A stretch of 64,000 nt of DNA from Bacteriovorax stolpii (GTDB lineage Bacteria > Bdellovibrionota > UBA1018), in the NCBI GenBank assembly GCA_945860415.1, contig CAMAQA010000003.1:8982-72981 (forward strand). The letters run 5' to 3'. Positions 1,750-29,994 of the stretch are shown here, one piece after another. Both the position numbers and the translations under genes were made by a program. The notes under the pieces are model-generated. The model ran no database searches. It had not been told where the DNA came from and was given only the letters and a program-made list of their open reading frames with translations. The stretch's first letter is position 1; each line of letters begins with the position of its first letter.

Positions 1750-2506
1750 GGCCGCGCAGGAATCCGGCCGTGTAAATACCGTTTCGCGCCACGAGCATCA
1801 GCAGCGAATTTGCCACGCAACCCAGGCCGTACTTCACGCTGCGGCGAAAATTAATCGAGGAAGCCTCCTCGAAGTACTTCGTCGGGCAGGACACCTCACC
1901 GAAGCGGTAGCCGGCCAGCGCAGCCTGGACGATCATCTGGTTATCAAAGATAAAATCGTCATCGTTGCTTTCGAGAGGAAGCTCCTGCAGCACCTGCTTC
2001 GAGAAAGCTCGATATCCCGTATGGTACTCGGAGAGCTTAAGTCCCATGCAAAGGTTCTGGAATCCAGTCAGTATCCGATTGGCGATGTACTTGTAGAGCG
2101 GCATCCCCCCCTGGAGCGCGGTGCCACCGAGAATGCGCGACGCCATCACGACGTCATAAAGGCCGCTGCCCACCATGTGAGCCATCACCGGGACGAGCTT
2201 CGGCGTGTACTGATAATCAGGATGCAGCATGATGACGATGTCCGCGCCGCGCGCAAGGGCCTCGCGGTAACACGTCTTCTGGTTGCCCCCATAACCCCGG
2301 TTTTTTTCATGACGAACGACATGCAGGCCGAGCTCGCGGGCTCGTTCGGAAGTTCCGTCACGGCTGCAGTCATCCACCAGGATGATGTCGTCGACGATGG
2401 TCCGGTCCACCTCCGCGAGGGTACGATCGAGGGTCTTCTCGGCGTTGTACGCCGGCATCACGACGATGACTTTCTTGCCGAAGATCATGAGGATTCGTGA
2501 TGACAT
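1718..2506 (-). CDS. Family-2 glycosyltransferase, Dpm1/ArnC-like polyprenyl-phosphate sugar synthase
   Basis: The N-terminus reads VVMPAYNAEKTL..VDDCSRDGT, the typical GT-A DxD/DDxS region of a 262 aa GT2. Confidence 0.85.
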   Translation of the reverse strand: MSSRILMIFGKKVIVVMPAYNAEKTLDRTLAEVDRTIVDDIILVDDCSRDGTSERARELGLHVVRHEKNRGYGGNQKTCYREALARGADIVIMLHPDYQYTPKLVPVMAHMVGSGLYDVVMASRILGGTALQGGMPLYKYIANRILTGFQNLCMGLKLSEYHTGYRAFSKQVLQELPLESNDDDFIFDNQMIVQAALAGYRFGEVSCPTKYFEEASSINFRRSVKYGLGCVANSLLMLVARNGIYTAGFLRGLTRAKIPSES

Positions 2507-2594
2507 GCGCCCTCCCGAATTTCAACCAGACAGGTGCTCCTCGCATGCAGGATTGTCTTTGCTCCGTAGATCTCTCGGACTAGTGTTCGGTCGC

Positions 2595-4148
2595 ATGGGT
2601 GTTCTTCGCGCATCGCGGCTGATTCCACTTGCTCTTTTCGCGGCCGCGCTCGTCGTCATCGCACCCTGGAGCAACTTTCCCCTCAACGATGACTGGGTCT
2701 ACGCGAGAAATGCAGTCGCTTCGGCCGAGGCCGGGCGGCTCGAGATCACTTTTCCCCAGTTCGCCTGGGCGATTCCTCAGACGATCATCGGAGCGCTGGT
2801 CGGGGCCTCTGCAAAAGAGCTCCATTCCGAACTCCGCTGGGTCGGAATCCTATCGCTGATCATCTCCTGGGCCCTGCTGTTTCGAATCGCTCCGATCGAG
2901 CGCGGAGACCGCATCCACGACACGTCGGTTGCCACGGCAACCCTCTTCCTGACGCCGCTATTTCTGGTCAGCCTGTCTTTTATGTCGGACACTCCCTTTC
3001 TCGCCTGCTGGATCGCCAGCATGAGTGCGTGGATGGCATGGTCCCGGCGGCCGACTCCCGTGCGCCTGCTGGTTGCAATCGCAGTCTCGAGCGCGTGCCT
3101 CGCCCAGCGACAGTTCGGTCTCCTCATTCCAGCAGCAATGGGTGTCGTTTTGACCCTCGAGTTCCTGCGCGGAAGGACCCGGCGAGCGGCCTTTCGCATG
3201 CTGGCTCCTGTTCCCACACTCGCCGTTTACGCCCTGCTCCACTCCTGGTGGAAAGATCATGCGCCTCTGGCCAGCGCCCCGTTGGATCTGACGCTTTCAC
3301 CGGTCTATGTTCTCGGCACCGCATTTGCGTCCCTCAGCCATCTCGGAATGCTGGGTCTTCCCTGGATAGCCGCGCCCCTTTCGCCGAAAAGTCGAAAAAT
3401 TCTGAGTGACCGAAGGTTCCAAGTCCTCTTTGGGGGGTTCGTTCTCTATTCTCTCGGCCACCAGCTTCGCTCCGGGAGCGCCTTTCCGTACCTCTCGAAC
3501 CAGATGTCCCGATTTGGTTTCTTCGGCGCAAACGAGATCCTCTACGGCGATCGCCTTCCGATTTTTGGCCTTCCGCTCGAGATGGTACTCACAGTGGTCT
3601 CGCTTGCGGGCGCGCTCAGGCTGGCGCTGGGATGCCTTGTATGGATTCGCGAACCCGGCAAGTCTCGGGCGGACCAGCTCGTGCTGGTTTCTGGGCTCGC
3701 CTATTTTGCCCTGAGCTGCTTTCGCGCCACCTTCTTCGATCGGTATGCTCTTCCTCTCCTTCCTTTCGCTCTCTACTGCTTGACGCGATCCGCGGATTCG
3801 TCGCAGATCCATCGCCCCGCGCGGATCGCCGGCGCTGCCGCCACTGCCGGACTTGTTCTGCTCTCAACAACGCTGGTCCACGATTACTTTCGGTGGAACG
3901 AGTCCCGATGGGAGGCAGCGCGTTTCGCTGTGGCGTCGGGGTGGCCCTCGAAGCAGATCGGGGCGGGATACGAATACTTTGGAGAGGTGGATGCCAGCGG
4001 AGCGGCCCCCAGTAAAGATCCCCGGTCTTACCCCGTGGTCGTTAGCTTCTCTCGACTTCCGGGATTCGAATCGATCCGTGAGTTTCCCTACCAATCGGCA
4101 TGGCACCCTCGCGGCGCAAGCATCCACCTGCTGAAACGCCTCGATTGA
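2595..4148 (+). CDS. GT-C fold membrane glycosyltransferase, ArnT/PMT-like (GT39/GT83 family)
   Basis: About 11 TM segments. The first periplasmic loop has an NDDWVY motif, matching the DE/DD loop-1 motif of ArnT and PMT enzymes. Start chosen at ATG 2595 to avoid overlap with the divergent GT2. Confidence 0.55.
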   Translation: MGVLRASRLIPLALFAAALVVIAPWSNFPLNDDWVYARNAVASAEAGRLEITFPQFAWAIPQTIIGALVGASAKELHSELRWVGILSLIISWALLFRIAPIERGDRIHDTSVATATLFLTPLFLVSLSFMSDTPFLACWIASMSAWMAWSRRPTPVRLLVAIAVSSACLAQRQFGLLIPAAMGVVLTLEFLRGRTRRAAFRMLAPVPTLAVYALLHSWWKDHAPLASAPLDLTLSPVYVLGTAFASLSHLGMLGLPWIAAPLSPKSRKILSDRRFQVLFGGFVLYSLGHQLRSGSAFPYLSNQMSRFGFFGANEILYGDRLPIFGLPLEMVLTVVSLAGALRLALGCLVWIREPGKSRADQLVLVSGLAYFALSCFRATFFDRYALPLLPFALYCLTRSADSSQIHRPARIAGAAATAGLVLLSTTLVHDYFRWNESRWEAARFAVASGWPSKQIGAGYEYFGEVDASGAAPSKDPRSYPVVVSFSRLPGFESIREFPYQSAWHPRGASIHLLKRLD

Positions 4149-4179
4149 CCCCATCTCATTCTGAAGGTAACCAGAACCC

Positions 4180-5148
4180 ATGCCTAGAAAGCTGATCTCG
4201 GTCGTCACTCCCTGCTACAATGAGGAGGAAAACGTCGCGGAACTCGTGAAACAGATCCGCGAGGTCTTTGCCCACGAACTATCCGGCTACGATTACGAGC
4301 ACATTCTCATCGATAACGCCTCAACGGACGGCACCGTCGCCATCCTCCGAAAAATCTGCGCCGAGGATCCACGAGTCAAGCTCATCATCAATACGCGCAA
4401 CTTCGGGCATATCCGGTCTCCCTACCACGGGCTGCTCCAAGGCAGTGGCGACGCGGTTATCGTGATGGCGTCGGACTTCCAGGACCCGATCGATCTCATC
4501 CCGCAGTTCATCCGCGAATGGGAGAACGGGTTCAAGGTCGTCAAGGCCGTGAAGGCGGAATCCAATGAGTCGCCGACGATGTTTGCCATTCGAAACTTCT
4601 ATTATCAGCTGATCGGTCGGCTTTCCGACATCCGGCTGACCAAGAACTACACCGGCACCGGACTTTATGATCGAGAAGTGATCCGCGTCCTCCGCGAAAT
4701 CCGGGATCCCTATCCTTACTTTCGCGGGCTAATCGCCGATCTCGGCTATGAAGCCGCGATCGTGAAATTCCACCAGCCTGCGCGCCGTCGCGGAATCACC
4801 AAGAACAATTTCTACACGCTCTATGATGTCGCCATGCTCGGCATCACCAATCATTCCAAGGTGCCCCTTCGCCTGGCAACGCTTTCAGGATTTGCTCTTG
4901 GAGCCATGAGCCTGCTGGTCGCCCTCGGGTACCTGGCCGCAAAGCTCATCTTCTGGGATACTTTCATGTTCGGTACGGCCCCGCTGCTGATCGGCATCTT
5001 TTTCTTCTCCTCCGTACAGCTGTTCTTCATTGGAATTCTGGGCGAGTACATTGGGTCGATCCACACCCAGGTCCTGAATCGACCGCTGGTCATCGAGAGA
5101 GAGCGCATCAACTTCAAACCGGCTTCGGCAGACAGGAGCACGCCATGA
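4180..5148 (+). CDS. GT2 polyprenyl-phosphate glycosyltransferase (ArnC/GtrB-like) with two C-terminal TM helices
   Basis: N-terminus VVTPCYNEEENV..IDNASTDGT. The C-terminus has two TM helices (SGFALGAMSLLVAL, LLIGIFFFSSVQLFFIGILGEY), the diagnostic ArnC/GtrB architecture. Confidence 0.85.
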   Translation: MPRKLISVVTPCYNEEENVAELVKQIREVFAHELSGYDYEHILIDNASTDGTVAILRKICAEDPRVKLIINTRNFGHIRSPYHGLLQGSGDAVIVMASDFQDPIDLIPQFIREWENGFKVVKAVKAESNESPTMFAIRNFYYQLIGRLSDIRLTKNYTGTGLYDREVIRVLREIRDPYPYFRGLIADLGYEAAIVKFHQPARRRGITKNNFYTLYDVAMLGITNHSKVPLRLATLSGFALGAMSLLVALGYLAAKLIFWDTFMFGTAPLLIGIFFFSSVQLFFIGILGEYIGSIHTQVLNRPLVIERERINFKPASADRSTP

Positions 5149-5969
5149 AATCGTTGATCGACCACCGCAATGTTCCGGTCTTCATCCTCGCCGGAGGCCT
5201 CGGCACTCGGCTTGCGGAAGAAACCCAGTCGAAACCCAAGCCCATGGTGGAAATCGGCGATCTTCCGATCCTGCTGCACATCATGCGCAACTACTACCGG
5301 CACGGCTTCAACGACTTCGTCATTTGCGCCGGCTATCGATCGTGGGAGATCAAGAACTACTTCATGAACTACGAGTTCCGCGATCGGCACCTCGAGATCG
5401 ATCATCGCACCGAACTCGACACACCGGCTCGCCCTCTGGGCAACTCCGTTCGCCAGGAAAAGTGGCGTGTCCGCGTGATCGACACGGGCCTGAACACGAT
5501 GACCGGGGGCCGTGTGGCTCGTGCTTTCGATGTCGCAGCAGCCGACACCTCCTTCGAGCAGTTTGCGGTCACCTACGGCGACGGCCTGACTGATGCGAAC
5601 CTGACGAAGGAACTCCAGTTCCATGCCGAGCACGGCAAGGTGGGCACCGTATTGGCTGTTCATCCGATGGCCCGCTTTGGTGAACTCGAAACCACAGCCG
5701 ATGGAACCGTCCGGCAATTCTCCGAAAAGCCTCAGGCCACCCAGGGGCGAATCAATGGCGGCTTTTTCTTCTTCAAGAAGTCCTTCCGCGACTACGTCTC
5801 GACCGATGAGTCCTGCATCCTCGAGCGAGAGCCGATGGTGAAACTCTCCGGCGAACAGCAGCTCAAGATCTTTCCGCACGACGGGTTCTGGCAGCCGATG
5901 GACACATTACGCGACAAGCACCAGCTCGAGGCACTATGGCAGAGCGGAAAAGCTCCCTGGCTGGCCTGA
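5145..5969 (+). CDS. rfbF: Glucose-1-phosphate cytidylyltransferase
   Basis: ILAGGLGTRLAEET.KPKPMVEIG..PIL.HIM. ... GINDF.IC.GY is an RfbF/DdhA signature. Length is 274 aa. Confidence 0.9.
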   Translation: MKSLIDHRNVPVFILAGGLGTRLAEETQSKPKPMVEIGDLPILLHIMRNYYRHGFNDFVICAGYRSWEIKNYFMNYEFRDRHLEIDHRTELDTPARPLGNSVRQEKWRVRVIDTGLNTMTGGRVARAFDVAAADTSFEQFAVTYGDGLTDANLTKELQFHAEHGKVGTVLAVHPMARFGELETTADGTVRQFSEKPQATQGRINGGFFFFKKSFRDYVSTDESCILEREPMVKLSGEQQLKIFPHDGFWQPMDTLRDKHQLEALWQSGKAPWLA

Positions 5970-7969
5970 TCCAGGCCCGCGAGTGCTGGAGTTCAGCCCC
6001 ATCGATCACCCGCTTTCATGTCGCATGGTGGGCCGCCTTCCGGGCAGTCCTGCTCTCGCTGCTGATCGCCGTGCCAGTGGGCCTTTTTGTGGCTCGGCCG
6101 CCCTCCCCGGAGATTCTTGAGGCCCTGATCCGTCCATTCCTGCTAAAGGACTGCAGGCCGGAACCGGGCGAGCAGCTGAGTTATGCGCTGTTCCTACTCC
6201 TTCTGACGCCTTCCTTCCTGTTTTTTCTGGGTCGAGCCCTACGTCGTCCCATCGATCCTTCGGCCGTCGAGCGTACCACGTTCAAGAGCCAGCTTTTCCT
6301 GCTGGGACTGTTCCTGTTTACCGGCCTTCGTTTACGGGAATGGTGGAGATTTTTTCCCGATTCGACCGTCCTGATCGTTGCCGCTGCTGCAGCCTACTGG
6401 CTTCGCGATCGTTTCCCAAAAGCTCGTCTGAAACGCCTTATCGACGGAATCCCTCAACGCGAGCTCCTGGCGTGGTCAGGGGCGGCGGCACTGACGGCCT
6501 TGTCACTCATTCACTCGATCTTCTCCGAATACGCGCTGGGCAGCGCGGGAGACGTTGTGAGATATCATTACAGTTACGCTTTGGATGAAGTAGCTGCAGT
6601 TGCTTCCGGAAATACCGTGCTCGTCGATTTCTTCCCCCAATATGTCCGTGTGCTTCCGTATCTGCTCGAACCCATTTTCCACCGCGTCGGTCTTTCCATT
6701 ACCAGCTTCAGCCTGAGCATGGCGCTCCTGAATGGCATCGCGCTGTTTTGTGGGTGGATCCTGATCCGTCGCTCCGTCCGGACACCACTGAAGGCCATGG
6801 CCTGCTTCGCGGCCATTACAGGCCTTTTCGCCCATCAGGATGCCGGCGCACGTTACGCCAGTGTCTTGACCTACCATGCGGTGGGCCCCTTCCGAATCTT
6901 CCTACCGATGCTCTCGCTCGTGTCGCTTTCCAGCGCGCTTCGCTCCGACTCTCGAACCTGGGCGTCTGTCGCAGCCCTCGTCTCCAGCACGGCGCTGCTC
7001 AACAACCCCGACTTCGGCCTGCCGACTTGGGTGGCCGTATCCGCTGCGCTGACGATCTTCGGATCGCGCCCGATGCGTTCGCTGCTAGTCTCGCTCTCGT
7101 CGCTTGGGGCAGTAATCGCTGCATTCATCGCCTTCACGTGGGCTCGATCCGGCCAGTGGCCGGACTTCTCAGTCGGCCTCGAATTCCAGCGGCTTTTTGC
7201 CTGGTCAGGTTTCTTCATGCTGAAGCTACCGGCCATCGGAATCTACCAATGGGTCTTCGCAACCTGCTTCTCCGGAATGATCGTGGCGTTAACCCGTAGA
7301 GTCCTGAACGCGCCTCAGGAGATCGATCGGCACCGCAATGGCTTGCTGCTGGCCACCGGCTTGATGGGCATGGGATGCCTCATTTATTATGTCGGGCGCT
7401 CCCAGTGGATCGTGACCACGGCAACTTTCTGGATTTTTTCGCTCTGCCTGGTGCTCCTTGTGGTGGAGGCTTTCCCGCTCCGGGCCACGCGCACTGCAAA
7501 GATTCCCCTGCTGATCTCATCGTTATTCCTGCTCGGCGGAATATCCATCCTGCCGTTGAGAGTGCTCGATCTTGGCCCGAAACTGACTGAACTGAGCGAG
7601 ACGGGGGGCGAGTTGAGCCGCCGCCTCGAAGCGACGACGAAAGAGGTCCGGACACGATCGACCTCGCATCCCGTGGCCCTGATCTTTCCTTATGGGCAGC
7701 TGGTGGCGACACGCGCGGGCGTGCGGAACGCTTCACCCTTTGCCGAGGAGGGCTCGATGATCTCGCGATCACAGCTCCAGCGGCTTGGAGCTGCGATTGA
7801 AAGAAATTGCGTGACGCTGGTGGCCTTCAAGGAACCCAAGAATGACCTGCTCGAGATACTCTCGCACTCCGGGTTTCGGCAGGCCTCGATCATCGATGAA
7901 ATCCGCTTCTGGGAACGTCCGCTCACTCGCCTGCCTGCGCCATGTACTGTCGCAGCTGCTGGCGCGTGA
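5936..7969 (+). CDS. Large polytopic membrane protein (677 aa), function unknown; possible GT-C glycosyltransferase or polymerase
   Basis: At least 12 hydrophobic segments and a soluble C-terminal domain. Embedded between rfbF and rfbG. Confidence 0.45.
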   Translation: MAERKSSLAGLIQARECWSSAPSITRFHVAWWAAFRAVLLSLLIAVPVGLFVARPPSPEILEALIRPFLLKDCRPEPGEQLSYALFLLLLTPSFLFFLGRALRRPIDPSAVERTTFKSQLFLLGLFLFTGLRLREWWRFFPDSTVLIVAAAAAYWLRDRFPKARLKRLIDGIPQRELLAWSGAAALTALSLIHSIFSEYALGSAGDVVRYHYSYALDEVAAVASGNTVLVDFFPQYVRVLPYLLEPIFHRVGLSITSFSLSMALLNGIALFCGWILIRRSVRTPLKAMACFAAITGLFAHQDAGARYASVLTYHAVGPFRIFLPMLSLVSLSSALRSDSRTWASVAALVSSTALLNNPDFGLPTWVAVSAALTIFGSRPMRSLLVSLSSLGAVIAAFIAFTWARSGQWPDFSVGLEFQRLFAWSGFFMLKLPAIGIYQWVFATCFSGMIVALTRRVLNAPQEIDRHRNGLLLATGLMGMGCLIYYVGRSQWIVTTATFWIFSLCLVLLVVEAFPLRATRTAKIPLLISSLFLLGGISILPLRVLDLGPKLTELSETGGELSRRLEATTKEVRTRSTSHPVALIFPYGQLVATRAGVRNASPFAEEGSMISRSQLQRLGAAIERNCVTLVAFKEPKNDLLEILSHSGFRQASIIDEIRFWERPLTRLPAPCTVAAAGA

Positions 7970-9005
7970 ACTCCGCCATCGATGACTTTGAGTCGTAAAA
8001 CTGGCGGTACCACTCGCTCGTGGCCTTCGCAGCTTCCGGCATCTCCCAAATCGGATGCCAGGAAAGTTCCTGGGCCGCCTTGTCGATACTGAGCCTCAGA
8101 AAGCGCGCTTCGTAAAGATCCTTCGAGCGGTCGCCGGCAACCTGCCACTTCGCCCCCGGCCAATTCTTCGTCAGCTCGGCCACGAGCTCCAGTACTGTTG
8201 CTCCGTGCCCGTGGGCCGGACCAAAGTTGAAGCCCTGGCCCGAGAATCGAGCCGGATCGCCCGCCGCACGCTCGGCCAGCCGCAAGTAGCCGGAGAGACA
8301 ATCCAGGACGTGCTGCCAGGGACGAGTTGCCGAAGGATTTCGAAGCTGAACGGCCCTGCCTTCGCCCCAGCTCTTTACGCAATCCACGACGATGCGATCC
8401 TTCGACCAGTCTCCGCCGCCGATGACATTGCCGGCTCGTGCGGTAACGACGACCGGAGCATCCGGGTCTCCGATGAAAAAGGAACGCGCGAACGACGAGA
8501 ATACCAACTCGGCGCAGCCCTTCGATGCACTGTAGGGGTCGCGCCCCCCCATCGGGTCATTCTCGCGGTAGGAATACACCCACTCGCGGTTTTCGTAGCA
8601 CTTGTCACTCGTGACGTTGACCAGCACGCGGACGCTTTTGCAATGTCGCAAGGCTTGCATCAGATTGGCCGTGCCGATGACATTCGTGGCGAGTGTTCCG
8701 ACCGGATCGTCGTAGGAAAGCCGAACCAACGGCTGGGCCGCCAGATGGAAAATGACCTCCGGCTGGAACTCGTCCAACGACTTCTGGAGTGCCGCCTGAT
8801 CGCGAATGTCGCCACGGAAGTCACGAATCTGGGACGAAAGCCCCAGGACCTCGAAAAGCGAAGGCTGGGTCGGAATCACATCGGAATATCCAGCCACCGT
8901 CGCTCCCATTTCGAGGAGCCACTGAGTCAGCCAGGAACCCTTGAACCCGGTGTGCCCGGTCACGAGCACCCGCTTGCCGCGATAGAATCCGCCCAGATCT
9001 GCCAT
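7923..9005 (-). CDS. rfbG: CDP-glucose 4,6-dehydratase
   Basis: GKRV.VTGHTGFKGSWL..WL.EMGA.V.GY ... YREN.PMGG.DPYS.SKGCAEL, very close to DdhB/RfbG. Confidence 0.9.
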   Translation of the reverse strand: MADLGGFYRGKRVLVTGHTGFKGSWLTQWLLEMGATVAGYSDVIPTQPSLFEVLGLSSQIRDFRGDIRDQAALQKSLDEFQPEVIFHLAAQPLVRLSYDDPVGTLATNVIGTANLMQALRHCKSVRVLVNVTSDKCYENREWVYSYRENDPMGGRDPYSASKGCAELVFSSFARSFFIGDPDAPVVVTARAGNVIGGGDWSKDRIVVDCVKSWGEGRAVQLRNPSATRPWQHVLDCLSGYLRLAERAAGDPARFSGQGFNFGPAHGHGATVLELVAELTKNWPGAKWQVAGDRSKDLYEARFLRLSIDKAAQELSWHPIWEMPEAAKATSEWYRQFYDSKSSMAEFTRQQLRQYMAQAGE

Positions 9006-9078
9006 GATTTCCGATTAAGCCGAGAAACCCTCAAGATTCAACGTGATTTCCCCAGTCCGATCGATTATCGAAATCCTC

Positions 9079-10410
9079 ATGAATCCAGCCCAGCTCCGCG
9101 AACAGATTGTCGGACAGTCGCGTGAATTTTTCGCCCTTCAGCACTCACCGAAGGCCTTCGTTCCGGGCCAGAGCTACATCCCGGTCACGACCAAGGTGAT
9201 GGACGCCGATGACATGGCATCACTGATCGATGCCTCGCTGGACCTCTGGCTCACCGCCGGCCGGTACTCGAAGGAGTTCGAAGCCGAGATTCCCAAGTTC
9301 TTCGGACGGACCAACAGCGGACTTCTCGTCAACAGCGGCTCGAGTGCCAACCTCGTTGCCGTTTCGAGCCTCGGGTCGCGTCTCATGAGGCAGTTCAAGA
9401 TGCGGCCGATCGAGAAGGGTGACGAGATCATCACCGCGGCAGCAGGATTTCCAACCACGGTGAACCCGATCCTCCAGAACGGCTGGAAGCCCGTCTTCGT
9501 GGATGTCGATCTGAAGACGCTTAATGCATTGCCCGAAGCCATCATGGCCGCCAAGACTTCGCGCACTCGTGCCGTGGTCCTCGCTCACACCCTCGGCAAT
9601 CCGTACCAGGCCAAGGTGCTGGCGGACTGGTGCGCCAGGGAAGACCTCTACCTCGTGGAAGACTGCTGCGACGCTCTCGGCGCAACGGTCGAAGGCCAGC
9701 CCGTCGGCTCGTTCGGTCATTACGCCACGCTCAGCTTCTACCCCGCCCACCACATCACGATGGGCGAAGGCGGAGCGGTCATCGCCCGTGACGGCAAGCT
9801 CCGCCGAGTTGCCGAAAGCATGCGCGACTGGGGACGCGACTGCTGGTGCGAGCCTGGACAGGACAACACCTGCGGCAAGCGTTTTTCGCAGACGCTCGGG
9901 CAGCTCCCCTGCGGCTATGACCACAAGTACACGTACTCGAGCATCGGCTATAACCTGAAGGTCACCGACATGCAGGCGGCCGTCGGAGTCTCGCAGCTCA
10001 AGAAGGTCGCCCGATTCGTCGAGGCTCGTCGCGCGAACTGGAAGGCACTCCATGCCGGAATCCAGTCTTCTCCGAAGCTCCGCGAAGCCTTCACTCCCGT
10101 GGAGCCGACGCCGGGAACGGAGCCCAGCTGGTTCGGCTTTCCGATCCACTGCTCGGAGTCGATCGATCGCGAAAAGGTGGTTCGTCAGCTCGAGGAGCGC
10201 AAGGTCGGTACGCGGCTGGTGTTCGCGGGAAATCTGACCAAGCAGCCGGCCTATGAGGGCGCGGATTACCGGGTGCATGGTTCGCTCCAGAACTCCGACT
10301 TCATCATGAAGCAGACGTTCTGGATCGGCGTCCATCCGGCGCTGACTGCCGCACACCTCCAGTACATGCTCGAGCAGCTGGAAGCGGTCATCCCCCTCAG
10401 CAAGAAATGA
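9079..10410 (+). CDS. rfbH: CDP-6-deoxy-D-xylo-4-hexulose 3-dehydrase (E1), PMP-dependent DegT/RfbH family
   Basis: Contains SFYPAHHITMGEGGAV, DWGRDCWCEPGQDNTCGKRF, YDHKYTYS.IGYNLK.TDMQAA, and LFAGNLT.QP, all hallmarks of DdhC/RfbH. An alternative start at 9043 is possible. Confidence 0.9.
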   Translation: MNPAQLREQIVGQSREFFALQHSPKAFVPGQSYIPVTTKVMDADDMASLIDASLDLWLTAGRYSKEFEAEIPKFFGRTNSGLLVNSGSSANLVAVSSLGSRLMRQFKMRPIEKGDEIITAAAGFPTTVNPILQNGWKPVFVDVDLKTLNALPEAIMAAKTSRTRAVVLAHTLGNPYQAKVLADWCAREDLYLVEDCCDALGATVEGQPVGSFGHYATLSFYPAHHITMGEGGAVIARDGKLRRVAESMRDWGRDCWCEPGQDNTCGKRFSQTLGQLPCGYDHKYTYSSIGYNLKVTDMQAAVGVSQLKKVARFVEARRANWKALHAGIQSSPKLREAFTPVEPTPGTEPSWFGFPIHCSESIDREKVVRQLEERKVGTRLVFAGNLTKQPAYEGADYRVHGSLQNSDFIMKQTFWIGVHPALTAAHLQYMLEQLEAVIPLSKK

Positions 10411-11453
10411 AGCCACTCTTCCACTCCGACCTCGACGAAATTCTCGATCTCTCGCGTGAAGATCTACTCGCGCTTCGCGGGGCGAGGATCTTCATCACCG
10501 GAGGAACGGGTTTCTTCGGAAAATGGATCGTCGAGAGCCTCATGCACGCCCGCGAACGTCTCCTCGGCGGCAAGCTCGAAATCACCGTCCTGACTCGCAG
10601 CCGGGCGAACGCCCGGACAGTCTTTGAGGGCGCGTTCGATCTCGACCAGGTCCACTGGCACGAGGGAGAGATCGCCTCGTTTTCATTTCCGTCTGGTTCC
10701 TTCAGCCACGTGATCCATGCGGCGACTCCGGCGCGCGCCAGCATCAATGACAACGATCCGCTCCGGATGCTCGAGATCACGATCTCGGGCACACGACACA
10801 TCCTCTACTTTGCACGGCAGGCCCAAAGCTCCCGCCTTCTCCTGACCAGCTCCGGGGCGGTCTACGGAGCCCAGTCGCCAGATCTTTACGGCGTGCCCGA
10901 ATCGCACCCCGGATTTGTCGATCCCCTCGAACCGAAGAACGCCTACGCCGTCGGAAAGCTCGTGTCGGAACACTTCTGCACGCAGTTCTCTTCTGACAAG
11001 CTGGCGTGCCTCATTGCCCGCTGCTTTGCCTTCGTCGGTCCGGGGCTTCCGCTCGACGAGCACTTTGCGATCGGAAATTTCATCGGCGACGCCCTCGCCG
11101 GGCGCAAGATCACCATCAAGGGAGACGGCACCCCGTATCGTTCGTATCTCTATCCCACGGACCTGATTGCCCAACTCCTGGCGATACTCGTTCGGGGCGT
11201 GAGCTGCAGGCCCTATAATGTCGGCCACCCGCAGGCATTCAACTTGAGGGAGATCGCCGAAGCCGTTTCTGCGCAGACAAACGTCGGAACGGAAATCCTG
11301 GGCAAGCCTCAACCGGGGGCCCGCTCGGTTCGGTACGTACCTGACCTGTCTCGCCTGCAATCTGAACTCGGCGCAGTGCCTCGCGTGAACCTCTCGGAAG
11401 CGATTCGGCGAACTCTCGCGTGGCACCGACATTCTGACCAAAAAAGGAAGTAA
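10407..11453 (+). CDS. Extended SDR NAD(P)-dependent epimerase/reductase, likely a CDP-deoxyhexose 4-reductase or epimerase (CDP-abequose/paratose-synthase-like or YerF-like)
   Basis: TGGTGFFGKWIVESL Rossmann motif and a YxxxK region (YAVGK). Located directly downstream of rfbFGH. Confidence 0.65.
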   Translation: MKPLFHSDLDEILDLSREDLLALRGARIFITGGTGFFGKWIVESLMHARERLLGGKLEITVLTRSRANARTVFEGAFDLDQVHWHEGEIASFSFPSGSFSHVIHAATPARASINDNDPLRMLEITISGTRHILYFARQAQSSRLLLTSSGAVYGAQSPDLYGVPESHPGFVDPLEPKNAYAVGKLVSEHFCTQFSSDKLACLIARCFAFVGPGLPLDEHFAIGNFIGDALAGRKITIKGDGTPYRSYLYPTDLIAQLLAILVRGVSCRPYNVGHPQAFNLREIAEAVSAQTNVGTEILGKPQPGARSVRYVPDLSRLQSELGAVPRVNLSEAIRRTLAWHRHSDQKRK

Positions 11454-11459
11454 CGTCAC

Positions 11460-13274
11460 ATGAGCACGATCCGCGTTGCCGACTACATCACCCAGTTCCT
11501 CGCCTCTCGCGGCGTTCGCCACGTTTTTCTGGTCACGGGCGGGGGCGCGATGCACCTCAACGACGCTTTCGGCCGTACCAAGGAAATCGAATACGTCGCC
11601 TGCCATCACGAGCAGGCCTGCGCGATGGCGGCGGAAAGCTACTATCGCCTCAGCGGCCGGGTCGCAGCCGTCAACGTCACCACGGGTCCTGGCGGCACGA
11701 ACGCACTCACCGGAATTTTCGGCGCCTACACCGATTCTTGTGGAGTCTTCGTCGTTTCCGGACAGGTGAAGACCGAAACCATCATCGCCTCGACCGGCCT
11801 GCCGCTTCGACAGATGGGCGATCAGGAAGTCGACATCATCTCGATGGCCCGCCCCATTACCAAATATGCGGAGATGGTCACCGACCCCACCACGATTCGG
11901 TATCATCTCGAGAAGGCCTGGCACCTCTGCACGACCGGACGCCCCGGACCCGTGTGGCTGGACATCCCCATCAACATTCAGTCGTCCATGATCGACCCGG
12001 CTTCACTGAAGGGGTTTGAACCCACAGAAGCAAAAATCGCCTGGGAGACCGCCGACCTCAAGGCCACGTGCGCCCGCATTCTCGACGACATCCGGCGAGC
12101 CAAACGGCCGGTGATCATGGCCGGAAGCGGCGTTCGGATATCCGGAACGACGAGCCAATTCCTCGCGCTCGTTGAACGCCTAGGTGTTCCGGTGGCGACT
12201 GCGTTCAATGCGCACGACCTCGTCTGGAATGATCATCCGCTCTACGCGGGCAGGCCGGGTACCGTGGGCGATCGTCCCGGAAATTTTGCGGTCCAGAACG
12301 CCGATTACGTTCTCGTGCTGGGCTGTCGCCTCAATATCCGCCAGGTCAGTTACAATTATCGCAGCTTCGCTCGCGCAGCGAAGGTCGCCATGGTGGATAT
12401 CGACGCCGCCGAGCTCAAGAAGCCCACACTGAAGATCGATGAGCCCGTCCACGCCGACCTGAACGACTTCTTTGCCACCTGCGCGACAATTAAAACGGAA
12501 GGCCCCACTCCGGAGCACTCGGCCTACGTGGCTCGGTGCAAGGAATGGCTCGCAAAGTATCCAGTGGTCCTGCCCGAGTACCGGGCCAATCGCTACAAGA
12601 TCAACCCTTACATCTTCATGGATCAGCTCTTCGAGCAGCTCGGGCCGGACGCGACGGTGGTCACCGCCAATGCCACGGCCTGCGTGACCGCATTCCAGAC
12701 TGCGACGATTCGCAAGGGCCAGCGCCTCTACTCGAACAGCGGCTGCGCCACGATGGGATTCGACCTGCCTTCGGCAATCGGTGCCACGTTCGCCGCTGGT
12801 CGCAAGCCGGTGATCTGCCTGGCCGGCGACGGCTCGATCCAGATGAACGTGCAGGAGCTGCAGACGATCGCTACCCACCGGCTGCCGATCAAGATCTTCC
12901 TGCTCAATAATCTGGGGTACCAGTCGATCAAGCTGACCCAGCAGAATTTCTTCTCGGACAACATTGTCGGCTGCGGCACGGACAGCGGCCTCGGATTTCC
13001 GAACTTCGCCCTGCTCGCCCAGGCCTACGGTCTGAAGTACTTCTCGGCGCAGACTCAGGACGCCTCTCCGGCAGCGATTCGCGAGGCACTCGCCGAACCA
13101 GGCCCAGTCCTTTGCGAAATCGAACTCGACGAACGTCAGCCGTTCGCGCCGAAGCTGAGCTCGCGCCGACTACCCGACGGACGAATGGTCTCCTCGCCAC
13201 TGGAAGACATGGCCCCATTCCTGCCGCGGGACGAATTTAAGGCCAACATGATCATTCCGATCATGGACGAGTGA
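11460..13274 (+). CDS. Thiamine-diphosphate-dependent enzyme, acetolactate-synthase large-subunit family (YerE-like two-carbon branch-attaching enzyme candidate)
   Basis: N-terminal ThDP PYR domain (VTGGGAMHLNDAF..TTGPGGTNAL), a central domain, and a C-terminal GDGS..N ThDP-binding motif (LAGDGSIQMNVQELQT). Length is 604 aa. Confidence 0.75.
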   Translation: MSTIRVADYITQFLASRGVRHVFLVTGGGAMHLNDAFGRTKEIEYVACHHEQACAMAAESYYRLSGRVAAVNVTTGPGGTNALTGIFGAYTDSCGVFVVSGQVKTETIIASTGLPLRQMGDQEVDIISMARPITKYAEMVTDPTTIRYHLEKAWHLCTTGRPGPVWLDIPINIQSSMIDPASLKGFEPTEAKIAWETADLKATCARILDDIRRAKRPVIMAGSGVRISGTTSQFLALVERLGVPVATAFNAHDLVWNDHPLYAGRPGTVGDRPGNFAVQNADYVLVLGCRLNIRQVSYNYRSFARAAKVAMVDIDAAELKKPTLKIDEPVHADLNDFFATCATIKTEGPTPEHSAYVARCKEWLAKYPVVLPEYRANRYKINPYIFMDQLFEQLGPDATVVTANATACVTAFQTATIRKGQRLYSNSGCATMGFDLPSAIGATFAAGRKPVICLAGDGSIQMNVQELQTIATHRLPIKIFLLNNLGYQSIKLTQQNFFSDNIVGCGTDSGLGFPNFALLAQAYGLKYFSAQTQDASPAAIREALAEPGPVLCEIELDERQPFAPKLSSRRLPDGRMVSSPLEDMAPFLPRDEFKANMIIPIMDE

Positions 13275-13285
13275 TCAGAGCCGGC

Positions 13286-14170
13286 TCAGCTTTTACGGCA
13301 GGCCAGCTGGAAGACGTGGGTGGCGCTTCCTCCTCCTACGATCGAGAGGGTTTCAAGCGATAGGACCGAGAGCCCACAGCCCTCCACGAGCCGCCGCAGT
13401 GAGGCTTCCGAATGGAAGTTGATGTGCTCGTGCCAGTGGCGCTTCTTCAGCCAGAAGTTCGGGTCGTCGCCCCGGTGCCGGATCAGGTCTTCCTGGGGCA
13501 CCTCGATGTAGAGGACCGTGTCCTTCTTCATCACACTGCCGATCTCCAGGATCTGCTCCCGGGGAAACGGAATATGCTCCAACACGTGGCTGCTCACGAT
13601 CAGGTCATAATGACCCTCGAGCGCGCGGAAGTAGTTCACCTTCGCGGCACCCGCGATGACCGGCCGATCGCTGATGTCAAAAATGTCCAGCGCGCTCGCA
13701 CGCGACCTGAAGGGAGTGTTGATTCCGGTGTCCCCGCCCCAGTCCAGCACCCGGGGAGCGGCGTTCACCAGCCATGGGCTCAGGAAGTCCTCGATCTTGT
13801 CCAAGTGGACGACGCCGGCCGCAATTCTGCTGTTCCGTTCACGGTAACCGGGCTCGTACCTATCCCGAAGGGCGACGTACTCCTCATCACGGTATCCCGA
13901 ATAAAGCGCCGCCATTTCACGGTCATCGAATCGAATGTCGAGGAAGACCAGATCACAGAACTCGCAATGCAGGGTGTTGCAGAGGGAATAAGCCATTCCC
14001 TGGCTGATGCTCCTCAGGCCCCAGGACTCATCGATCCTCACCGGCTCCCAGCCAAAAACCCGATGAGCAACGAACGGCATCAGAATGGCGGAGTTCCTAT
14101 GCAGGTTCCTCGAACCACAGGTCACGCACTCTGAGGCGATTCTGGGCTGTCCGGAAGTCGGTTTCATCAA
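13286..14170 (-). CDS. Class I SAM-dependent methyltransferase with an N-terminal Cys4 zinc ribbon (sugar C/O-methyltransferase-like)
   Basis: CVTCGS...CNTLHCEFCD zinc ribbon, MTase motif I VLDWGGDTG, and motif LIVSSHVLEHIPFP. Confidence 0.7.
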   Translation of the reverse strand: MMKPTSGQPRIASECVTCGSRNLHRNSAILMPFVAHRVFGWEPVRIDESWGLRSISQGMAYSLCNTLHCEFCDLVFLDIRFDDREMAALYSGYRDEEYVALRDRYEPGYRERNSRIAAGVVHLDKIEDFLSPWLVNAAPRVLDWGGDTGINTPFRSRASALDIFDISDRPVIAGAAKVNYFRALEGHYDLIVSSHVLEHIPFPREQILEIGSVMKKDTVLYIEVPQEDLIRHRGDDPNFWLKKRHWHEHINFHSEASLRRLVEGCGLSVLSLETLSIVGGGSATHVFQLACRKS

Positions 14171-14198
14171 TGCAAGCCTCCCTTGCGTCCCTTGAGGG

Positions 14199-15392
14199 TT
14201 GAAGCTATTTCATAGCGAACACCCCGAGGAATTTGCAATGTCTGTCTTCCACGACATCTGGCGAGAAATTCAGCCGACATCACGATGCCTGGAGATCGCC
14301 CGCGACACTCTTGCCCAGGGAGGCCGGATCGCTGTCTACGGGACGGGCACGGCAGCCTCAGATGTGATCCGGCTGCTCAGAAAGAAGGACCTGTCCCCAT
14401 CGCTGGTTCTCGATGCAAAGAGCAACAAGAGTTCACTCGAAGGTCTCGAGGTCAGTGACCCCGGCTCGCCCTCCTTCTCTCAGCCGGACAAGCAAAGAAC
14501 CGTCGTCTTCATGGGAATTTTCAATCCCGCCGTCGACCTCACGGGCCTCCGTCAGCATCTCATTTCACTCGGTTGGACGAACTCGATTGACTTCGTCGAG
14601 CTCCATGCAGCAGCACCTGAGGAACTCGGCGACCGCTACTGGCTTACCGACAGATCTTTCTATCAACGGCATCAGGCCGAAATTACTGCCGCAGCCAAAC
14701 TCTGGGCGGACGACCACAGTCGTAAGCTGTATGAAGATACCTTGCGTTTTCGATTGCTGGGAGATGATTCAGGCCTGCGGGCACCGGATCTCCACCATCA
14801 GTACTTTCCGCTCGATCTGGCCCCCCTTCAGACTCGACTGAAACGCAGCCCGCTTCGGCTAATAGACTGCGGCGCCTGTGTTGGCGACGTCTTGAAACAT
14901 ATCCGAAAGCAGGGATACCCGATCGAATCGGTAGCTTGTTTCGAACCCGACCCCAGAAATTATCAGGGGCTGATCGAGACCGTGAACTCTGGAGCGCAAA
15001 TACCGGAGGGAGCATTCCTGTTTCCATGCGGAGTTTCTTCGCGCTTCGAGGTTCTTCGTTTTTCCTCCTCACAAGGCGCGGCCAGCGCCGTTTCCGCTGA
15101 TGGAGACCTGGCCATCAATTGCCTTTCGATCGACGAATCTCTGCCCGGATATGCTCCGAATTTCATCAAAATGGATGTGGAAGGGGCCGAATCCGCCGCC
15201 CTGGACGGAGCGAGACGCACGATCAGCAGCAGTCGACCGGCCCTGGCCATCAGTGCGTATCATCGACCCGCGGATCTTTGGGAGCTTCCGCACCTCATCG
15301 AGGCATGGCAGCTCGACTATGAGTTCCACCTTCGTCAGCACATGTTTCGAGGGTTCGACTTGGTTTTATACGCAATTCCTCGTATGAACTAA
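14199..15392 (+). CDS. FkbM-family methyltransferase with an N-terminal Rossmann-like extension
   Basis: The C-terminal half reads LIDCGACVGD..FEPDPRNY..FIKMDVEGAE..L.GA, a Methyltransf_21/FkbM signature. Confidence 0.7.
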   Translation: MKLFHSEHPEEFAMSVFHDIWREIQPTSRCLEIARDTLAQGGRIAVYGTGTAASDVIRLLRKKDLSPSLVLDAKSNKSSLEGLEVSDPGSPSFSQPDKQRTVVFMGIFNPAVDLTGLRQHLISLGWTNSIDFVELHAAAPEELGDRYWLTDRSFYQRHQAEITAAAKLWADDHSRKLYEDTLRFRLLGDDSGLRAPDLHHQYFPLDLAPLQTRLKRSPLRLIDCGACVGDVLKHIRKQGYPIESVACFEPDPRNYQGLIETVNSGAQIPEGAFLFPCGVSSRFEVLRFSSSQGAASAVSADGDLAINCLSIDESLPGYAPNFIKMDVEGAESAALDGARRTISSSRPALAISAYHRPADLWELPHLIEAWQLDYEFHLRQHMFRGFDLVLYAIPRMN

Positions 15393-15421
15393 CTTCAAAA
15401 ATTTGAACTGAGGGGACCATC

Positions 15422-16510
15422 ATGTCTGTCATCCACGGAAACATCTTCGACGAGCTTTTTGTTCTCGAACTAGCCAGCAATCACTGGGGCCGACTCGAGC
15501 GCGGCATCAAGATCGTCCATGACTTCGGCCGAATCGTCCGCCACAACAACGTCAAGGCGGCGATCAAGCTCCAGTTCCGTGATGTCGACAACTTCATCCA
15601 CAAGGATTTCCGCGGCCGGACGGACATCCGCTACATCAAGAAGACCCTCGACACCCAGATGCCCTGGGAGAAATATCGGATCCTCTGCGAGGAGGTCCGC
15701 AAGAACAACTGCATGATCATGGCCACGCCGTTTGATGAAGTTGGCGTCGAGAAGTGCGTCGAGTTCAACTGCGCCATCATCAAGATCGCCAGCTCCGACC
15801 TGAATGACTGGGTACTGCTCGAAAAAATCGCCAAGACCAAGAAGCCGGTGATCGCCTCGACCGGCGGATCAAGCCTGAAGGACATCGACGATCTCGTGAC
15901 CTTCTTCACGAATCGGAACATTCCGATCGCGATCAATCACTGCGTCTCCATTTATCCTTCCGAGGACAAGGAGCTCGAACTCAACCAGATCGACTTCCTG
16001 AAGGCGCGATACCCGCACCTGACCATCGGATTTTCGACGCACGAGCAGCACAGCTGGGATGCCTCGATCATGATGGCCTACGCCAAGGGTGCGCGTACGT
16101 TCGAGCGTCACATCGACATCGACGCGGATGGAATTCCCGTTTCGCCCTACTGCACGACTCCCGAAAACTGCGACAAGTGGTTCCGGGCCTTCCACAAGGC
16201 CAAGGAAATGTGTGGAGCCCCTGGCACTGCCAAGCGCATTCCGCCGGAGAAGGAAATCAAGTACCTCGACGGCCTCGTTCGTGGAATTTACGCCAGCCAC
16301 GACCTGCCGGAAGGTCATGTCGTCACGGAGAAGGACATTTACCTCTCCATCCCGCTGCAAAAGGGCCAGATCTCCTGCCGCGAACTGTTTTTCGGTGAAA
16401 AGCTGATCCGCCCCGTGAAGGCGGATGGCGCGATCACGATCGACCACATGGACACTCCGTATTCGCAGAACCCGGAGCTCCGTCAGTTGATCATGAACCG
16501 CGGCATCTGA
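15422..16510 (+). CDS. NeuB-family ulosonic-acid synthase (N-acylneuraminate / KDN-9-phosphate synthase-like) with a C-terminal SAF domain
   Basis: ELASNHWG..., IKIASSDLND, STGGSSL.DIDD, and IAINHCVS.YP are conserved NeuB TIM-barrel motifs. The C-terminal region is antifreeze-like. Confidence 0.85.
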   Translation: MSVIHGNIFDELFVLELASNHWGRLERGIKIVHDFGRIVRHNNVKAAIKLQFRDVDNFIHKDFRGRTDIRYIKKTLDTQMPWEKYRILCEEVRKNNCMIMATPFDEVGVEKCVEFNCAIIKIASSDLNDWVLLEKIAKTKKPVIASTGGSSLKDIDDLVTFFTNRNIPIAINHCVSIYPSEDKELELNQIDFLKARYPHLTIGFSTHEQHSWDASIMMAYAKGARTFERHIDIDADGIPVSPYCTTPENCDKWFRAFHKAKEMCGAPGTAKRIPPEKEIKYLDGLVRGIYASHDLPEGHVVTEKDIYLSIPLQKGQISCRELFFGEKLIRPVKADGAITIDHMDTPYSQNPELRQLIMNRGI

Positions 16511-17172
16511 TGGCCCACCTCTTTTTTGACCTCGATGGAACCCTGCTGGACCCCAGCGAGGGTTTCGCGCTTTCGCTGGCGCACGCGTTTTCCCGGAGCG
16601 GGCTGAACGTTCCCCCGCGCGAGGTGCTCGTGACGGCCATTGGCCCTCCCGCAGACGAGTGGTCGATGCATTTTGGGGAAGATCGGCTTCCGGCCTCTCG
16701 CCTCTCCGAATTGATCGTCCACTATCGCGAACACTACGAGCGCGAAGGCCTCTACCTGCAATCTCATTATCCCGGACTGCGCGAGAGCATCGAGGCCCTG
16801 CGCCTGGCAGGCCACTCACTCTCCATTGCCACTTCAAAACCCCAGAAGCAGGCTGAAACCGTGCTGTCGCATTTCGGCTTCGAGCCGATGTTCACGGGCA
16901 GGATCTTCGGGCGAGATCTCTCGCAGTCGGGAGACAAGACCACGATCCTGGGCCGGGGCCTGCGAAGCACTGGCCATGAGCCCGCGCAATCCATCATGAT
17001 CGGCGACCGGCTTCATGACTGCCGCGCCGCCCGAAATCTCGGGCTCACCAGCATCGGCGTGCTTTATGGTTTTGGCTCACGACAGGAGCTCGAGGGCGCC
17101 GGCGCGACGCTGATCTGCGAAGCTCCGAGTCAGCTCGTTGCCTGCGTGACCCGAGTGATCTCCGGGGCCTGA
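16510..17172 (+). CDS. HAD-superfamily hydrolase, subfamily IA (phosphoglycolate-phosphatase-like); candidate sugar-phosphate phosphatase partnering the NeuB-like synthase
   Basis: DLDGTLLD motif I, S.ATSK motif II region, and GD..D motif IV (IGDRLHDCRAA). Confidence 0.75.
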   Translation: MAHLFFDLDGTLLDPSEGFALSLAHAFSRSGLNVPPREVLVTAIGPPADEWSMHFGEDRLPASRLSELIVHYREHYEREGLYLQSHYPGLRESIEALRLAGHSLSIATSKPQKQAETVLSHFGFEPMFTGRIFGRDLSQSGDKTTILGRGLRSTGHEPAQSIMIGDRLHDCRAARNLGLTSIGVLYGFGSRQELEGAGATLICEAPSQLVACVTRVISGA

Positions 17173-18452: not shown

Positions 18453-18480
18453 TCAACCACTCGTTTCAAAACCAACCCTG

Positions 18481-19428: not shown

Positions 19429-19490
19429 CCAGCCCTCCTGACCGGGCTCCCGCCCATTGAAATGTCGCCCCTGGCGAGTTAATTGGAATC

Positions 19491-28193: not shown

Positions 28194-28222
28194 GTGGCGT
28201 GCGGCCTGCTTTACTCGGCATC

Positions 28223-28738: not shown

Positions 28739-28796
28739 ACTGTCTGGCTCAACCCGGGCTGCTCGGCGCAGGCGGCCAAGAATGTTTGCTCCTCAT

Positions 28797-28825
28797 ACCT
28801 CCATTTTTATGATAAAAATGGAGGT
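28797..28825. promoter_or_regulatory. 12-bp perfect inverted repeat (ACCTCCATTTTT-ATGAT-AAAAATGGAGGT) that abuts the AAA-ATPase start codon and includes its GGAGG Shine-Dalgarno sequence
   Basis: Read directly from the sequence. It would form a hairpin in the mRNA that sequesters the RBS, or could be an operator. Confidence 0.5.
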
Positions 28826-29989: not shown

Positions 29990-29994
29990 GGGCG

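Follow-up and report, generated by a model that had tools for sequence, protein, structure and literature searches.

A branched-sugar gene cluster of Bacteriovorax stolpii with a sialic-acid-synthase-like enzyme as the probable source of the branch donor

The 64,000-nucleotide stretch of Bacteriovorax stolpii contig CAMAQA010000003.1 that was analysed here (the window) contains, at 4.1-17.2 kb, a gene unit for a branched sugar linked to cytidine diphosphate (CDP). It is a cassette of the YerE type and was, errors of layout aside, correctly recognised as such by an earlier note on this DNA. Our reading, to which we give a probability of about 0.6, is that the region encodes the enzymes for building a 4-C-branched 3,6-dideoxyhexose, activated with CDP and belonging to the long-branch (acyl-branched) type, in which a thiamine diphosphate (ThDP)-dependent carboligase would attach a branch whose donor is made by a NeuB-like synthase. 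The keto acid of the branch thus probably comes from a neighbouring sialic-acid-synthase-like enzyme, and the genomic evidence makes a sugar of the caryophyllose or gastriose type, with a long branch and probably O-methylated, the likely product in place of yersiniose. The earlier note had pointed to yersiniose with a two-carbon (C2) branch derived from pyruvate; this product is not supported here, as the conserved NeuB-like and HAD genes behave genomically as the supplier of a longer 2-oxo acid.

In the known long-branch systems, those of erwiniose, caryophyllose, gastriose and a sugar of R. palustris CGA009, a cluster-encoded pyruvate aldolase makes a gamma-hydroxy-2-oxo acid; such acids are the donors that ErwE, MMAR_2332 and MyGE transfer onto CDP-4-keto-3,6-dideoxyglucose before a reductase acts, and MMAR_2331 is described as a member of the aldolase/citrate-lyase family (Steitz et al. 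2022, PMC9306805). The distribution of aldolase and NeuB-like genes around homologues of the ThDP enzyme carries most of the argument. One genome per species was scanned with an alignment of the ThDP enzyme, yielding 80 loci at 51-65% identity. The set of related loci comprises 82 ThDP-seeded loci, in which all open reading frames (ORFs) were clustered and shadow ORFs removed. A NeuB-like gene is found in 35 of them and an HpcH/HpaI-type aldolase gene in 34; the two never occur together, and 13 loci lack both. The HpcH-type aldolase of the 34 loci is of the family reported for MMAR_2331 (PF03328). The mutual exclusion gives a Fisher p of 1.5e-12, a value that overstates the significance because the loci are phylogenetically non-independent. 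On the ThDP tree, where L042 stands on a long branch, probably owing to an over-extended ORF, NeuB-type and aldolase-type loci interleave, which indicates several switches of donor type. The two genes also exchange within one slot: Sphingobium chungbukense (L058, NeuB-like gene at 8818-9930) has the order ddhA-ddhB-ddhC-NeuB-like-ThDP-HAD-SDR (short-chain dehydrogenase/reductase), and S. rhizovicinum (L037, aldolase gene at 9194-9994) has ddhA-ddhB-ddhC-HpcH-ThDP-HAD-SDR. In all 35 loci that possess it, the NeuB-like gene points in the same direction as the ThDP gene; in 20 the two are direct neighbours, and in 8 a single gene lies between them.

The association holds in the reverse direction. 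A metagenome scan with an alignment of the NeuB-like protein gave 80 loci, which were filtered for flanks of at least 2.5 kb on both sides. A ThDP homologue is present in 28 of the 28 loci that pass this filter and in 15 of the 15 with flanks of at least 4.5 kb, usually in the order ThDP-HAD-NeuB-like-GT2, and no HpcH aldolase was found among the flank-filtered loci. The pairing extends to the distant branch of Protein Data Bank (PDB) entry 3g8r, whose full-length protein is a NeuB-SAF-cupin fusion with 35% identity to the NeuB-like protein of the window. Its locus in C. violaceum reads ddhA-ddhB-ddhC-NeuB-ThDP-methyltransferase, with an SDR gene further on, and the core order ddhA-ddhB-ddhC-NeuB-ThDP recurs in all four sampled cases (C. 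violaceum, Azoarcus sp. KH32C, Rhodocyclus tenuis and an ENA contig). In the window itself no HpcH aldolase was detected, either by tblastn with 12 proteins of the HpcH cluster or as a Pfam family; a DeoC/LacD-family protein is encoded at 46949-47761, 30 kb away among housekeeping genes.

Two further features of these clusters were recorded. The clusters of the 3g8r branch (L164-L167) add radical-SAM enzymes (one of them B12-binding), a NUDIX hydrolase and a Methyltransf_14-type (C-methyltransferase-like) protein, and that of Azoarcus adjoins flagellin, a hint that a branched sugar with much tailoring may be attached to this protein. Among the ThDP-seeded loci, a classical SDR gene and a 3-dehydroquinate-synthase-like gene form a tight pair (26 loci with both, Fisher p 3e-14; L004-L083, for example L005, L006, L008, L013 and L049). 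In most cases this pair follows the ThDP gene immediately, in some together with an FGGY kinase gene; it is found with both types of donor, and its products may serve to form or alter the aldehyde or the branch. The pair is absent from the window, where a search for homologues of the 3-dehydroquinate-synthase-like protein found none.

The properties of the NeuB-like protein are consistent with such a role. Enzymes of the NeuB family condense phosphoenolpyruvate (PEP) with an aldehyde to give a 3-deoxy-2-oxo acid and phosphate; as this is the same product class as that of a pyruvate aldolase, the NeuB-like protein could fill the role of the aldolase. Its best PDB match is 3g8r (215 bits), followed at 82 bits by the second, and it scores far below the cut-offs of the equivalogs PseI (123 bits against 340) and NeuB (110 bits against 400). 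Alignment to 1xuu and 4ipi shows that the NeuB positions E, K, K, H and E-x-H, presumably with catalytic, metal- and PEP-site roles, are retained. Pfam and NCBIfam scans found no nonulosonic-acid pathway or CMP-activation family in the window, nor is any CMP-sugar synthetase or nonulosonic-acid family enriched beside the NeuB-like gene in the 35 loci. The HAD protein encoded directly downstream has phosphoglycolate phosphatase as its top NCBIfam match (90 bits, below cut-off). Its family is present in 31 of the 82 ThDP-seeded loci, mostly directly after the ThDP gene, and in 35 of the 80 NeuB-seeded loci.

Several observations weigh against a NeuB-supplied donor. In addition to the 13 loci that hold neither gene and the non-independence of the loci, the HAD gene also accompanies aldolase-type clusters (10 loci), so that its function cannot be linked specifically to the NeuB product, and in the window a distance of 2.1 kb, with two methyltransferase genes in it, separates the ThDP gene from the NeuB-like gene downstream. 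The ThDP enzyme is just 37% identical to JanthE, the YerE-like ketone-accepting carboligase of Janthinobacterium sp. HH01, for which physiological substrates are themselves undefined (PMC12188165). Furthermore, the YerE-like MyGE (PMC9306805, Table 1) and JanthE take pyruvate in vitro, which makes a C2 branch possible. The use of pyruvate and the separation of the two genes in the window speak for an alternative of the yersiniose type, in which the ThDP enzyme would add a C2 branch from pyruvate, the SDR would reduce it and a methyltransferase would decorate it, with the NeuB-like and HAD proteins serving another sugar of the same glycan; ddhA, ddhB, ddhC, the SDR gene and a gene for a YerE-like ThDP enzyme are all there. 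We nevertheless hold this alternative to be unlikely, for the NeuB-like gene is strictly exclusive with, and swaps into the slot of, a donor-making aldolase, and every adequately flanked NeuB-seeded locus contains a ThDP gene. The pairing of the two genes moreover persists at 35% identity, and no gene for a CMP-sugar synthetase or for nonulosonic acids accompanies the NeuB-like gene in the window, nor is any such family enriched beside it in the 35 loci.

A second alternative, more doubtful than the first, would place the NeuB-like protein after branching or on the sugar itself, PEP being condensed, for example, with the aldehyde of a branched CDP-sugar or of a free sugar to give a carboxylated higher sugar. 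Tight NeuB-ThDP linkage indeed shows a common pathway and not the order of steps, and the cupin fusion of the 3g8r branch hints at additional sugar chemistry. The exact alternation with a pyruvate aldolase argues instead for the same role, and for ErwE, which rejects pyruvate, an aldolase step before the ThDP step has experimental support (PMC9306805). Moreover, the addition of pyruvate by a ThDP enzyme leaves a methyl ketone and not the aldehyde on which NeuB chemistry would act. Supply of the donor before branching thus remains the preferred place for the NeuB-like protein.

The ThDP enzyme possesses three ThDP domains, the canonical GDG...NN motif (GDGS...NN) and the activating glutamate of HHEQ. 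Its best PDB match is JanthE (8rph, 8rpi and 8rpj; 433 bits, 37% identity over 598 residues), compared with 5ahk (250 bits, 30% identity), which we take to be a YerE homologue of Pseudomonas protegens and on which no literature was found, and with E. coli IlvB (227 bits, 28% identity). A C-terminal tail, PKL...DG..VS.PLED..P..PRD, is common to the ThDP enzyme and JanthE and absent from 5ahk and IlvB; it includes a lysine that matches the engineered hotspot K567 of JanthE. Among homologues from other genomes, 80 of 81 are likewise nearest to JanthE. Those at 59-78% identity come from Oligoflexia/Bdellovibrionota, Elusimicrobiota, Planctomycetota, Verrucomicrobiota, Acidobacteriota, Myxococcota and others, and those at 51-78% identity adjoin ddhA, ddhB or ddhC in dozens of genomes across phyla (40-50 of the 82 loci). 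All NCBIfam equivalogs of acetohydroxyacid synthase (AHAS) score below cut-off, the best reaching 339.7 against 538, and neither ilvN nor ilvC lies next to the ThDP gene, which is flanked by the SDR and methyltransferase genes. The comparison of 11460-13274 with YerE-like references (JanthE and 5ahk) and with IlvB therefore favours the YerE type, in agreement with the earlier note, and the enzyme is predicted to be a ketone-accepting, sugar-branching carboligase of that type. That it might be an ordinary anabolic acetolactate synthase large subunit (IlvB/IlvI) placed in a glycan locus by chance, as the top NCBIfam names and the source annotations say, is scarcely credible in view of these scores, of its flanking genes and of a ddhA/B/C association conserved across phyla.

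The deoxysugar core was assigned by family scores and motifs. DdhA matches TIGR02623 with 283 bits (E 2e-84), just under the cut-off of 300.25, the second-best family reaching 73 bits. DdhB matches TIGR02622 over its full length (478 bits, cut-off 278.45) and DdhC matches NF011936 (620 bits, cut-off 423). DdhC carries the exact [2Fe-2S] motif of E1, C197-X57-C255-X-C257-X7-C265, and has a histidine at the position of the lysine that binds pyridoxal phosphate (PLP) (SFYPAHHITMGEGG). The Fe-S motif and the histidine identify it as a dehydrase of the E1/SpnQ type, which needs external electrons, and not of the ColD type; the mechanisms of both types are summarised in PMC8987622. The earlier note had found no ddhD/E3 in the window, and this is confirmed over the 64 kb: no ORF joins a plant-type ferredoxin motif with ferredoxin-NADP reductase (FNR) motifs, and Pfam finds no Fer2/FAD_binding_6/NAD_binding_1 protein among the large ORFs. 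Applied to 10 kb around each of the 82 related loci, among them 40 with ddhC, the same motif test detects no E3-like ORF, and Pfam annotation shows none in four further ddhABC loci. SpnQ is a documented E1 homologue that is served by general ferredoxin or flavodoxin reductases (PMC8987622). That the lack of E3 points to another chemistry is therefore not supported, since E1 keeps its Fe-S motif and histidine, E3 is absent from all related loci examined and SpnQ provides a precedent. The absence of E3 is the rule in these clusters, is ordinary and gives no clue.

A side observation concerns the acceptor. Many ThDP loci contain ddhA and ddhB without ddhC (L013, L016, L021, L022, L024, L026-L028, L033, L043 and L044). 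Their acceptor may be CDP-4-keto-6-deoxyglucose with the 3-hydroxyl group kept, which would imply a further set of branched 6-deoxyhexoses.

The pathway may be assembled as follows. The first three steps are read from the enzyme sequences: DdhA would form CDP-glucose, DdhB would convert it into CDP-4-keto-6-deoxyglucose and DdhC (E1) would yield CDP-4-keto-3,6-dideoxyglucose. As no dedicated E3 is present, the electrons for E1 would come from a general ferredoxin or flavodoxin reductase encoded elsewhere. The NeuB-like synthase would condense PEP with an aldehyde or aldose, possibly phosphorylated, to give a 4-hydroxy-2-oxo acid (a 3-deoxy-2-ulosonic acid), and the HAD phosphatase could act on the precursor of the aldehyde, on the keto acid or on the branch to take off a phosphate. 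The ThDP enzyme would then decarboxylate the keto acid and add the acyl-anion equivalent to the C4 ketone, creating a tertiary alcohol with an acyl branch, the C1' ketone of which would be reduced by the SDR, as YerF does. The two methyltransferases, one with a Zn-ribbon-like region and one of the FkbM family, may methylate hydroxyls of the branch or the ring. Finally, the GtrB/ArnC-like glycosyltransferase would place the sugar on undecaprenyl phosphate for addition, at the outer face, to a glycan exported by Wzm/Wzt. The scheme is the published sequence of aldolase, ThDP enzyme and reductase, except that a PEP-dependent NeuB-family synthase substitutes for the class II pyruvate aldolase. The branch of gastriose has two O-methyl groups and equals a decarboxylated 3-deoxy-octulosonate; this pattern is what a donor like 3-deoxy-octulosonate (KDO) and two methyltransferases would give.

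The gene map (Table 1) is based on the ORF listing, on GC content by codon position and on Pfam and NCBIfam scans of the window ORFs. For ddhA, ddhC, the extended SDR gene and the 604-amino-acid three-domain ThDP enzyme, it agrees with the description in the earlier note. Other parts of that layout had to be redrawn. Contrary to what had been stated, ddhA, ddhB and ddhC do not form an uninterrupted run on a single strand, since ddhB lies on the minus strand, and the gene for the 677-amino-acid membrane protein between ddhA and ddhB had been skipped. A plus-strand ORF at 8055-9125, once taken for rfbG, matches no Pfam or NCBIfam family, the overlapping minus-strand ORF being the real gene. The Zn-ribbon methyltransferase gene stands beside the ThDP gene as described and lies on the minus strand, so that the two are convergent. 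An end of the cassette at 14170 would exclude the conserved FkbM, NeuB-like and HAD genes, and the GT2 gene upstream had been omitted too. The genes ddhB (ATG on the complement at 9005) and ddhC (ATG at 9079) are divergent with a spacer of 73 bp, and the start of ddhC agrees with a 443-amino-acid gene call in the related locus L001. The start of the SDR gene overlaps the stop of ddhC, and the ThDP gene is translationally packed behind these two genes. A scan of 4000-19600 for promoters and terminators gave counts equal to those of shuffled controls. The whole arrangement is kept in the closest relatives, which are metagenome-assembled genomes (MAGs) of Oligoflexia. Beyond 17.2 kb follow genes for a membrane protein, a GT2 enzyme, Wzm/Wzt, a PhyH-like dioxygenase, a methyltransferase and further GT2 enzymes.

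Table 1. Predicted genes of the branched-sugar region and the neighbouring exporter (positions in the window; ABC, ATP-binding cassette; PMP, pyridoxamine phosphate; SAM, S-adenosylmethionine)
Gene or product	Position	Strand	Family evidence
GT2 glycosyltransferase, polyprenyl-phosphate sugar synthase type (PgfS/ArnC/GtrB-like)	4180-5148	+	Pfam Glycos_transf_2
ddhA/rfbF, glucose-1-phosphate cytidylyltransferase	5145-5969	+	TIGR02623; Pfam NTP_transferase
Orphan 677-aa polytopic membrane protein with C-terminal alpha/beta region	5936-7969	+	No family
ddhB/rfbG, CDP-glucose 4,6-dehydratase	7923-9005	-	TIGR02622; Pfam GDP_Man_Dehyd and Epimerase
ddhC/rfbH (E1), PMP- and [2Fe-2S]-dependent CDP-4-keto-6-deoxyglucose 3-dehydrase	9079-10410	+	NF011936
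Extended SDR, proposed YerF-like reductase	10407-11453	+	Pfam Epimerase, 107 bits
YerE-like (JanthE-clade) ThDP-dependent carboligase, 604 aa	11460-13274	+	Pfam TPP_enzyme_N/M/C
SAM methyltransferase with N-terminal Cys4 (Zn-ribbon-like) region	13286-14170	-	Pfam Methyltransf_23, 72 bits
FkbM-family methyltransferase	14199-15392	+	Pfam Methyltransf_21; TIGR01444
NeuB-family PEP-dependent synthase (3g8r-like)	15422-16510	+	Pfam NeuB (PF03102), 133 bits
HAD-IA phosphatase	16510-17172	+	Pfam HAD_2, 95 bits
Wzm/Wzt ABC exporter, presumed glycan context	19491-21058	+	NCBIfam galactan_ABC_perm, galactan_ABC_ATP and TagH, all below cut-offs

The accessory proteins fit into this framework to different degrees. 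The SDR possesses the GxxGxxG and YxxxK motifs, finds its best PDB matches among nucleotide-sugar SDRs (UXS1, 108 bits) and shares 40% identity with the SDR encoded in the C. violaceum cluster. Its homologues, comprising the family SDRext and the distantly related SDR24, are present in about 50 of the 82 loci. The cysteines of the Zn-ribbon methyltransferase are arranged as C15-x2-C18 and C64-x4-C69-x2-C72, and its gene is syntenic in L002 and L003. Methyltransferases of the FkbM family occur in 11 NeuB-type loci and in no aldolase-type locus; one Methyltransf_23 subfamily was observed in 12 aldolase-type loci and in no NeuB-type locus. This split by locus type suggests that tailoring enzymes are matched to the type of donor.

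The GT2 glycosyltransferase matches the NCBIfam models PgfS (180 bits) and ArnC (107 bits), both below cut-offs, and has C-terminal hydrophobic segments at residues 230 and 256. Homologues are found in 55 of the 82 ThDP loci, and in most metagenome loci their gene directly follows the NeuB-like gene. Judged by these similarities, the enzyme probably loads the finished sugar onto undecaprenyl phosphate. Related loci also carry GtrA flippases and PMT_2/GT-C enzymes, homologues of which were not found in the window. Three polytopic membrane proteins without a Pfam or NCBIfam family are encoded in the window, at 2382-4148 (plus strand), at 17130-18452 (minus strand) and between ddhA and ddhB. The last of these, the 677-amino-acid protein, has at least 8 hydrophobic segments, no NCBIfam match and no Pfam match even at E<=10, and just two remote homologues were found among 5.8 billion proteins. 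It is 33% identical to the product of the syntenic gene in L002, as against 67-89% for the neighbouring genes of that MAG, and so it appears to be a very fast-evolving component of the glycan locus. Its AlphaFold2 model, made from a three-sequence alignment, is unusable, with a predicted local distance difference test (pLDDT) score of 38. That it is a GT-C-like transferase or a polymerase is only a guess.

Further genes of the window were noted in passing. The gene for the PhyH-family Fe(II)/2-oxoglutarate dioxygenase (21090-21965, plus strand) has Wzt on one side and a small methyltransferase gene on the other; a possible role of the enzyme is hydroxylation of the glycan or of the sugar. A GDP-mannose 4,6-dehydratase is encoded at 26048-27040, and dTDP-rhamnose genes are located at 27135-28193 (rmlB), 32238-33113 (rmlA) and 34353-35393 (rmlD). 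The rml genes are interrupted (28142-34402) by an ORF6N/Rha-like gene, two AAA_14 ATPase genes (one with DUF4143) and a HipA-like kinase gene, which look like insertions of the mobile or toxin-antitoxin type within the sugar locus. In the region of ribosomal protein L21 (54010-54957, plus strand), the longest ORF has 315 amino acids with the L21 domain at just residues 144-248, so that either the protein is extended at its N-terminus or the start was called too far upstream. The gene at 58128-59078 (plus strand) encodes a phytochelatin-synthase-like protein.

Beyond this one locus, the chances seem to us about even that a large, phylum-spanning NeuB subfamily, which includes 3g8r, makes not sialic-acid-like sugars but 3-deoxy-2-ulosonic acids, destined for decarboxylation by YerE/JanthE-like ThDP enzymes and grafting onto CDP-4-keto-(3,)6-deoxyhexoses. 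If this is true, higher-carbon C-branched sugars that are chemically undescribed in most of these lineages are to be expected, and physiological donors for the JanthE clade are indicated. Caryophyllose, gastriose and erwiniose are rare, immunologically relevant surface components whose biosynthesis was rationalised only in 2022. Were the NeuB route equally common, many genes called 'N-acetylneuraminate synthase' or 'acetolactate synthase' would be misnamed in Bdellovibrionota/Oligoflexia, Planctomycetota, Verrucomicrobiota, Acidobacteriota, sphingomonads, Rhodocyclales and Chromobacterium. The length and substitution of the branches of surface sugars would become predictable from the gene cluster, and an irreversible, PEP-driven route to functionalised 2-oxo acids could be paired with ketone-accepting ThDP carboligases. 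The hypothesis is directly testable, as cultivable carriers and the crystal structure 3g8r exist.

Known systems resemble the region in different parts. NeuB, PseI and LegI, the nonulosonic acid synthases, share with the NeuB-like protein the NeuB TIM-barrel domain and the conserved metal- and PEP-site residues, whereas the window protein lies far below the equivalog cut-offs, has no CMP-activation partners and is paired with a YerE-like ThDP gene. Its best solved match, 3g8r ('SpsE' of Chromobacterium violaceum), is an uncharacterised structural-genomics protein. JanthE is the closest solved and characterised relative of the ThDP enzyme and has the C-terminal tail in common with it, but shows a CDG motif in place of the canonical GDG. 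SpnQ of the spinosyn forosamine pathway, like DdhC, is a 3-dehydrase with an Fe-S cluster and histidine that is encoded without an E3 partner; its substrate, however, is a dTDP-2,6-dideoxy sugar, whereas the window enzyme is a close RfbH equivalog and has a CDP sugar as its substrate. The yersiniose A pathway of Yersinia pseudotuberculosis O:VI (DdhA-D, YerE and YerF) has DdhA, DdhB, DdhC, a ThDP branching enzyme and a reductase in common with the region, but the window is without DdhD/E3, and the identity between its ThDP enzyme and 5ahk is about 30%. The presence of a dedicated donor-supply module makes a pyruvate-derived C2 branch unlikely here.

The closest parallels are the long-branch clusters, of which ErwE/F/I/J, MMAR_2331/2332 and MyGE/MygF/MygI are the examples. 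More than 200 YerE-like clusters were reportedly mined by Krug et al. in 2024. Partners of the PEP-dependent or sialic-acid-synthase type are mentioned neither in PMC9306805 nor in the 2025 review PMC12247030, and may be mentioned elsewhere, for example in Krug et al. 2024; a literature search found no paper that joins CDP-glucose, acetolactate synthase, neuraminate synthase and O-antigen. Both the long-branch clusters and the region described here possess genes for CDP-4-keto-3,6-dideoxyglucose, a YerE-like carboligase, an NAD(P)H reductase and a dedicated enzyme able to make a gamma-hydroxy-2-oxo acid, together with SAM methyltransferases such as were proposed for R. palustris. They differ in the nature of the dedicated enzyme, which is a class II pyruvate aldolase there and a PEP-dependent NeuB-family synthase with an attached HAD phosphatase here. 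Replacement of the aldolase by a NeuB-family synthase apparently constitutes a widespread and undescribed variant of the known scheme.

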